Assembly (NCBI RefSeq): GCF_002571385.2 | Contig: NW_019217855.1 | Span: 445,927-509,926 of the forward strand | Source: Stylophora pistillata | Lineage: Eukaryota | Direction: 5' to 3' | DNA length: 64,000 nucleotides | Shown: in pieces, positions 778 through 2,333 of the stretch | Numbering within the stretch: the first letter of the stretch is position 1 | Layout of the letters: the number at the start of each line of letters is the position of its first letter | Notes under the pieces: generated by a model | What the model was told of the DNA's origin: nothing | Database searches by the model: none | Seen by the model: the letters and a program-made list of their open reading frames with translations, nothing else | Program-made: the position numbers and the translations under genes

Positions 778-2333
778 ACAACCCTAGAACAGTTCAGATG
801 CGTCTTGGAAGAACTATGGTTTCGAAACAGTGATGGCTTCAAAAACGTTTTTGTTGGTAAGTGTGGCAAATAAAATATATAAATATAAATTGTCTGAAGT
901 TGCAGATCGGCTCAATCTCCACCGGAGAAGATGAATGGGTCTTAAGTAGTCCCTAAAGCACTAAGAAGATGAATGGAGAAGATGAATGGGTCTTAAGTAG
1001 TCCCTAAAGCACTAAGCTACCCGAAAAACTCGTTTATTCCTCGATGGATATGATAAATATGATACAAAGTTTGGCTCGTACATCCATACTCATTAATTCC
1101 GTTTTCACATTTTTTCACACTCAGGTGAAAAAAACGCCCACGATTATACTGGATTTCACAACTGGTACCAGTTCCTCCTTGAACAGCAAAGAAACCCACC
1201 ACAGACGACGAACATCTGTTTTAAACAGCCTCCACAACTGCCGGGTTTCGTTGAAAACAGACTGGTCAGTTATTTCATTTAGAGCCAAAAACTCTACCTG
1301 TGAGGCCCAAAGGCTCAGCTAACAATGTGCTCGGTTATCTGACAAGCAAATTTTGAAATCAATTTGTGTTCGTAAATTACAATATTCATACATACATAGG
1401 GGCGTTAGAAGAAGACACAGAGGGGTGATAGCGTGCGGAATGGCTAAATTGCCAGTCACACTATTCTGCTTAAATGCCGTGATTGTTGCGTCAATTCCTC
1501 TCGCTGAAAAAGGCGTTCTGTAAAAATTTCAGAGGAAACTATTCCTGCAAGAATGCTTCTCTACATGTCTCTTGACGAGCAGCTAACAAAGGGTAGAGAG
1601 AAGGAGGCACTGGCAGGAAATTGTTTCTCGTAATAGTCTGGGCCAACTTGACCTTTAGCACGAACCTACCAATCTTTCTCAGGAATGTTTAAAAAGGACA
1701 CCACGGTGTCTCCCGTGAAAGCCAGGGAGTAAGTAGTAGCATCCTAGCCAGATCTTTCTTTAAAAAATTTAGTGAAAGGATACAGTAATGGGGTCAGTGA
1801 TTGTAAAAGACGTACAATTTAAAGTCAGTTGTTCATGTTATGTCACGGAGGAATGGAATTCATAAACGCTTGACTGTTTACCTCAGATGATTGTGCATTA
1901 CACCGGTGTGATCCTCATTAACGCCATGAATATTTGTGTGGCCTTGATATCCAATGGCCTACATTTCAAAGTATAAAGAGAGAAACACTTAGTTTATCCT
2001 TTACCTTTTAATCTACAGCCATACTTTTTGCGTGACCTCTCATTCACATGGAGAGGGGTTACCAAAGTACCAGCGGGCAGCAGCAGCAGCATGTTCGTTG
2101 GAACTAGCCCAGATTTTGATTTGGCTATGTTTACTACTTGTGTTTTAATGGGACGTCAAGGGGGAGGAGTTGTACAGGGAAACCGACGAAGAACAGACTG
2201 TAGGTGCAACATCCAGACTGCGGTTCCATACGTGCAGGCCGCAGGGTTACCGCCGAGCCAGGTAGAATTTAGGACCGTCGAAGACACACAGAATATGAGG
2301 GTCGTCACCGCCTATCCAACAAATGTCCAGTAG
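778..2333 (+). CDS. ENDOU: EndoU/XendoU-family endoribonuclease paralogue 1 (partial; last three exons 778-856, 1125-1264, 2019-2333); first catalytic His replaced by Asn
   Basis: Spliced translation TTLEQFRCVLEELWFRNSDGFKNVFVG/EKNAHDYTGFHNWYQF.../PYFLRDLSFTWRGVTK...SSMFVGTSPDFDLAMFTTC matches the EndoU motifs GFEHVFVGE, GFHNW and FxGxSPEFE. GT-AG introns are in phase and match paralogues 2-4. Confidence 0.85.
924..1016. repeat. Direct repeat, 2 x 42 bp (period 51), in an EndoU-1 intron
   Basis: ggagaagatgaatgggtcttaagtagtccctaaagcactaag at 924-965 and 975-1016. Confidence 0.9.

Follow-up and report, generated by a model that had tools for sequence, protein, structure and literature searches.

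Loss of the first catalytic histidine in a conserved EndoU paralogue of the coral Stylophora pistillata, a candidate pseudo-nuclease

Introduction

EndoU endoribonucleases are generally taken to have an invariant His-His-Lys triad, and what is known of roles that do not need cleavage comes mainly from engineered mutants. In human EndoU, the H285A and H300A substitutions are each reported to abolish activity, and the H285A protein is reported still to bind RNA, binding that needs K343 and S347 (PMC11961692). The same source describes E290 as contacting and locking H285, and E284 as binding the activating calcium, the E284A protein being inactive. Caenorhabditis elegans ENDU-2 is reported to be secreted, and its cleavage-dead E454Q form, which like human H285A keeps RNA binding, is reported to rescue a germline function (PMC7904951), a precedent for cleavage-independent EndoU function. 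Both H285A and E454Q are laboratory mutants of otherwise canonical enzymes, whereas the coral protein described here is known from its sequence.

Natural losses of the triad also exist. Among the 150 best representatives of the family, which gave 169 domain alignments of which 13 were dropped for gaps, 150 of the 156 EndoU domains that could be scored carried the first catalytic histidine (His1). The six domains without His1 also lacked the second histidine (His2), and five of them were in proteins of 548 to 618 aa with two matched stretches, three of these long proteins being named as nematode. Loss of His1 alone was found in none of the 156 domains, as scored with a profile made mostly from His-bearing sequences. 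Because natural dead domains exist in the nematode ENDU-2-like two-domain proteins (P0136 from Parascaris/Ascaris, P0166 from Panagrellus, and P0129 from Cylicocyclus), pseudo-EndoUs are not a new category. In those degenerate domains, however, neither histidine is present and a second EndoU domain is part of the same protein, whereas the coral protein stands alone and lacks only His1. A further protein, P0122 (375 aa), is an EndoU that resembles Acropora trefoil-fused proteins and lacks both histidines. A lack of a catalytic histidine in Drosophila CG3303 was not borne out by PMC5282483; the "100% conserved" residues given there come from a triad-filtered alignment, and that statement is therefore silent on natural losses. 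A literature search, largely of open-access papers, turned up no account of EndoU arrays in corals or of the loss of a single catalytic His.

Here we describe an EndoU paralogue of S. pistillata, copy 1, in which His1 is replaced by Asn. We give about even chances to the reading that it is a retained pseudo-nuclease of secreted type that likely binds U-containing RNA without cutting it. This reading is favored because H285A is reported to bind RNA without cleavage and ENDU-2 E454Q to rescue function.

Copy 1 is an open EndoU gene with Asn in place of His1

The window, the whole stretch of 64,000 nucleotides that was analyzed (G000:C72:445927-509926), starts directly after a 1205-N assembly gap and contains the last three exons of copy 1 and all of copies 2 to 4 (Table 1). 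Window positions 835-846 read GGC TTC AAA AAC, which gives G-F-K-N in copy 1; in place of the last codon, copies 2, 3, and 4 have CAT (14167-14169, 20682-20684, and 26848-26850, respectively). The original prediction of GFKN instead of GFKH was thus correct, as were its statements that the three exons in the window are open with intact splice sites (all have AG/GT ends, and the joined frame runs to TAG) and that His2 and the downstream Lys are retained. Its name for the gene, paralogue 1, suggested the first member of the array, and this did not hold, as two further copies sit upstream of the window. When the exons predicted beyond the gap were joined to those in the window, exons 1 to 6 gave a model of 301 aa whose frame is open and whose splice sites are all canonical, with no stops, frameshifts, or broken splice sites. 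The N terminus is hydrophobic and signal-peptide-like, resembling those of the neighboring copies, from which we infer a protein of secreted type.

Table 1. Features of copy 1 and of the EndoU array (positions are those of the window unless prefixed by the contig)
Feature	Position	Strand	Remarks
Copy A	G000:C72:414650-417635		Truncated recent duplicate, 95% identical to copy 2, stop in exon 4
Copy B	G000:C72:418244-422360		Complete, 293 aa, GFKH
Copy 1, predicted exons 1-3	G000:C72:425368-425414, 426288-426457, 442105-442259		Upstream of the window, beyond the 1205-N gap
Broken Maverick/Polinton-like element, ~15 kb (L016, L015)	G000:C72:426611-441546		In copy 1 intron 2
Partial exon 3 duplicate, exon 3a (L021)	G000:C72:441791-441871		From an old 296-bp tandem duplication, in intron 2
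Copy 1, exon 4	778..856	+	Ends in GFKNVFVG; joined to exon 5 in RNA runs X9 and X18
Lys146	841..843	+	Calcium-site position (human E284, XendoU E161); Lys in all copies of the array
Asn147 (AAC) in place of His1	844..846	+	Human H285, XendoU H162; 0 other letters in X9 contig
Copy 1, exon 5	1125..1264	+	0 other letters in X9 and X18 contigs
Glu152	1127-1129	+	Human E290 position; exon 5
Loop His156 (CAC)	1139-1141	+	EKNAHD loop; exon 5
Catalytic His162 (CAC)	1157-1159	+	His2 (human H300, XendoU H178); exon 5
Copy 1, exon 6	2019..2333	+	XendoU Pfam match
Lys213 (AAA)	2064-2066	+	Human K343, XendoU K224; exon 6
Ser221			Human S347 position; exon 6
Stop TAG	2331-2333	+	Exon 6
Copy 2	12054..15670	+	6 exons, 303 aa, GFKH; model equals the printed sequence of NCBI Stylophora pistillata protein P0102
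Copy 3	19323..23299	+	296 aa, both His present
Copy 4	25252..27957	+	290 aa, both His present

Exon 6 of copy 1 on its own matched the PF09412 XendoU profile with 36.6 bits, against a cutoff of 32.3, and the relatives P0025 and P0040 scored 68.1 and 73.8 bits. When P0040, a close relative, was aligned with XendoU (2c1w) and human EndoU (9ftw), the Asn fell on H162 and H285, respectively. Copy 1 shares with eukaryotic EndoU (PF09412; 2c1w and 9ftw) the domain match, His2, the Lys, the position of the uridine-pocket Ser, and a signal-peptide-like start, with likeness of fold coming from its His1-less relative P0025. It differs in having Asn at His1 and Lys at the calcium-site Glu (E284/E161), so that two of the residues of active EndoU are absent, and in its setting, a coral tandem array with mosaic paralogues.

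Upstream of copy 1, the NCBI model P0003 appears to fuse the 5' exons of copy A with the 3' exons of copy B. Within copy 1, the Maverick-like element in intron 2 has 273-bp terminal repeats that are 4.8% apart and a 6-bp target duplication, and intron 3 carries a hAT remnant; both names are our reading of Pfam matches, motifs, and repeats. Exon 3a is still open, and its splicing in frame is possible, giving variants of 328 or 277 aa; exon 3b has an altered start. In G000, neither the 28 matches to P0040 nor the 14 to PF09412 included another His-less copy or a haplotig, and the EndoU genes examined on contigs C414 and C23 keep GFEH.

Copy 1 has evolved under purifying selection

Counted against copies B and 2, the changes unique to copy 1 were 26 synonymous and 36 nonsynonymous (dN/dS of about 0.40), a ratio that departs from neutrality (p=5e-4) and does not differ from that of the neighbors (Fisher p=0.25). 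A codon model of five copies put the copy 1 branch at 0.32 to 0.37 and the background at 0.41 (p of about 0.03 against 1 and of 0.6 to 0.8 against the background). The dN/dS of about 0.3 to 0.4 on the copy 1 branch, a check named in the original prediction, is that of purifying selection like that on the neighbors. In exon 4, copies 1 and 2 are separated by 13 synonymous and 2 nonsynonymous differences, one of the latter being the His. All seven coding indels between copies 1 and B, some of which may belong to the copy B branch, were in frame, compared with 7 of 26 in flanking noncoding DNA, and copy 1 keeps 108 of the 109 columns that are invariant among close relatives. On these sequence comparisons, copy 1 is under purifying selection with a catalytic residue lost and with its frame and fold residues conserved. 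Since these measures are branch averages in a gene-converting array, in which dS between exons 1 and 2 of copies 1 and B is 0.04, they do not date the loss of the His, which may be recent.

This last point leaves room for a rival that we consider somewhat unlikely, namely, that copy 1 worked as an ordinary enzyme until a short time ago and has since become an early pseudogene, the loss of His being recent, the insertions silencing the gene, and the selection signal being older. The ~15-kb Maverick-like element and the hAT remnant in its introns, the partial duplication of exon 3, and the altered start of exon 3b are all consistent with such a history. So are the length of its branch in the protein tree (0.25, versus 0.087 for its sister) and the fact that the array does produce pseudogenes, copy A being one. 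Drift does not readily explain the open frame, however: in a rough simulation that assumed 0.1 indels per substitution, the frame stayed intact in only about 6% of cases at 2.5% divergence, which is half the divergence of the terminal inverted repeats, and in 0.5% at 5%. Moreover, Pocillopora has lost the same His and kept the gene.

Copy 1 is spliced and weakly expressed

A 390-nt contig from RNA run X9 covers codon 844-846 with 0 other letters and joins exon 4 to exon 5 at GT..AG; it begins 168 nt inside intron 3. Run X18, from a different study, gave a 313-nt contig with the same exon 4-exon 5 joint and an exact exon 5. Because the spliced X9 contig matches with 0 differences, the codon is not an assembly error. 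The original prediction had noted that reads might show His instead; the X9 contig, the one place where the codon was seen directly, shows Asn.

Contig depth on copy 1 was 5 to 8 in X9 and X18, and the raw runs X21 and X24, of which 2% and 6%, respectively, were sampled, gave zero depth on exons 4 and 5. Expression of copy 1 was thus very low, near background in the runs examined. Runs X1 to X8, which contain 78 to 92% of the words sampled, form no part of this evidence. None of the four RNA runs covered exon 2, and in none was the 5' half of copy 1 seen spliced to the 3' half, as would be expected of an early pseudogene. The His-bearing copy B, used as a control, had zero depth on its exons in X21 and a contig depth of 6 to 10 in X18, and since it was equally weak in the same runs, weak expression in these samples is not peculiar to copy 1, which argues against decay of this copy in particular. 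Of the suggestion that the upstream exons might be disrupted and the gene silent, the first half failed, the exons being open, and the second half keeps some force from the missing exon 2 RNA in all four runs and the near-background expression.

Two contigs from X18 were mosaic (L022:750-4276 and L021:6545-6925). One B-type contig started with a copy-1-type exon 1, and one ended with a copy-1-type 3' half of exon 6; these may be converted or hybrid alleles or mis-joined contigs.

Pocillopora has His1-less and His2-less paralogues

A paralogue with GFRD in which His2 and the Lys are kept was present in P. damicornis, P. verrucosa, and P. meandrina (XP_066027704.1, CAH3105631.1, XP_027039339.1, and RMX49648.1) and in two full-length Logan proteins, and P0004/P0040 have GFRN, likewise with His2 and the Lys kept. 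The proposed comparison with related species was therefore informative, as three Pocillopora species have His1-less paralogues, though with GFRD rather than GFRN or GFKN. Like copy 1, the Pocillopora paralogue has lost His1 alone, and it is the best match for copy 1 exon 5 (35/46) and for the start of exon 6 (28/31). It differs from copy 1 in having Asp rather than Asn and, just before it, Arg rather than Lys. Its residue at E290 is His, and the second half of its exon 6 is of copy-3 type (33/62 to copy 1). No database protein was found for copy 1 itself, the best matches to its exon 6 not exceeding 69% identity.

Judged from their locus tags, pdam_00003002 (His1-less), 3000 (copy-3-like), and 2999 (copy-4-like) fit the order B, 1, 2, 3, 4, as does the order of the P. 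meandrina accessions, and on this numbering the GFRD gene looks like it occupies the array position of copy 1. An AlphaFold model of P0025 from P. verrucosa (pLDDT 83) has a complete EndoU fold and matches 2c1w and 9ftw with TM scores of 0.63 to 0.65 (E of ~1e-12). The opposite loss also occurs: the copy-3 orthologue of P. damicornis and P. verrucosa (P0055 and P0074-P0076) has lost His2 (GFQNW) and kept His1, unlike copy 3 of Stylophora, which retains both. Most paralogues keep His, His, and Lys in both genera and in Acropora and Orbicella.

In P0025, P0026, P0007, P0034, P0038, and P0040, the residue that aligns with human E290 is His and the one that aligns with H285 is Asp or Asn, and in the P0025-type relatives the His-acid pair is apparently swapped, with Asp at H285 and His at E290. 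These proteins bear on a second rival, in which copy 1 still cuts RNA at a rewired site where a neighboring His replaces His1. Such a move has a parallel in engineered RNase A, for which relocated histidines are reported to have kept 9% activity (PMC7297114), and the swapped pair of the Pocillopora genes and the Asn/His of P0040 would be in keeping with it. For copy 1 we find it quite unlikely. The E290 position holds Glu, not His, and four residues separate it from the spare His, whose loop differs between paralogues in both length and sequence, and the human H285A and H300A substitutions are each reported to leave no activity. The original prediction had allowed that this EKNAHD His might compensate for His1, an idea left unsupported for copy 1 by the same variability and by the position of the His in the His1-less relatives, four residues earlier. 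A rewired site would suit the Pocillopora genes better than copy 1.

Trees of copy 1 and the other His1-less genes

Copy 1 is mosaic in its affinities: nearest to it are the GFRD genes in exon 5 and the first part of exon 6, copy B in exon 2, and copy-2-type genes in exon 4 and the last part of exon 6. A full-length tree of 26 of 31 rows (P0013, P0019, P0038, P0048, and P0050 were left out) placed copy 1 as sister to copy B (81/96), which needs two His changes, and united the His1-less genes in 0 of 200 bootstrap trees. Segment trees of 16 to 17 rows, for which the segments were picked after the identities had been seen, neither showed nor rejected a single His1-less clade (AU p of 0.083, 0.102, and 0.089). 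None of the four trees showed a single origin of the His loss. Either one old loss or two convergent losses would fit tolerance or benefit better than random decay.

The calcium site is changed throughout the array

Every copy of the array has Lys or Arg at the position of the calcium-binding Glu (human E284), which is Glu in 139 of the 156 family domains. This residue might serve as a built-in cation and make the enzymes calcium-independent. Because the change is in every copy, even the nuclease activity of the neighbors is presumed. It is also compatible with a third rival, slightly less likely than a rewired site, that all members of the array have given up cutting RNA for some other secreted function and that the loss of His reflects relaxed constraint at one residue. 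The loss of His1 or His2 by different paralogues would fit this, but His, His, and Lys are retained by most paralogues across genera, as is expected of active enzymes. Finally, we give next to no probability to an error of assembly, or a rare allele, as the source of the Asn codon. The window begins at an assembly gap, mosaic alleles show up in X18, and the reads examined were RNA, but the codon is identical in the X9 contig, with 0 other letters. Exon 4 also has 10 synonymous differences from copy B and 13 from copy 2 and is therefore a distinct old sequence.

A possible role for copy 1

The claim that copy 1 is a pseudo-enzyme accordingly stands in part. Purifying selection, an open upstream model, spliced RNA, and the Pocillopora His1-less paralogues speak for it; expression near background and the lack of exon 2 RNA weigh against it. 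If copy 1 is a retained pseudo-nuclease, a full six-exon transcript would be made and its protein secreted. By analogy with human EndoU, Asn at the H285 position would remove cleavage, and RNA binding would be kept through the K343 and S347 positions, both of which are retained in copy 1. The protein could then hold or shield RNA, or compete for it with its His-bearing neighbors, in the secretory pathway or in mucus. More broadly, and as a proposal that we rate as quite unlikely in this full form, the pocilloporid EndoU array may be split into active enzymes and two half-disarmed kinds, one His1-less and one His2-less, with the swapped His-acid pair of the His1-less lineage marking either a rewired active site or decoys that bind RNA outside the cell and so tune the active copies.

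Since one coral array holds stand-alone paralogues that look active, others without His1, and others without His2, the locus amounts to a natural mutant series. It lets one ask whether an EndoU can be kept for RNA binding alone, whether Lys can substitute for calcium, and whether the His can be moved to the E290 position. It also calls for caution, as such proteins are annotated as endoribonucleases without a check of the triad.

Two other features of the window lie outside the copy 1 gene. At 16135-17406, the same retrotransposon-like frame is repeated on either side of a 6-N gap (16768-16773), pointing away from it on opposite strands, and is probably an assembly artifact. Downstream of the array, positions 36510-37046 (+) hold a 179-codon open frame with a signal-peptide-like start, possibly a gene for a secreted protein.
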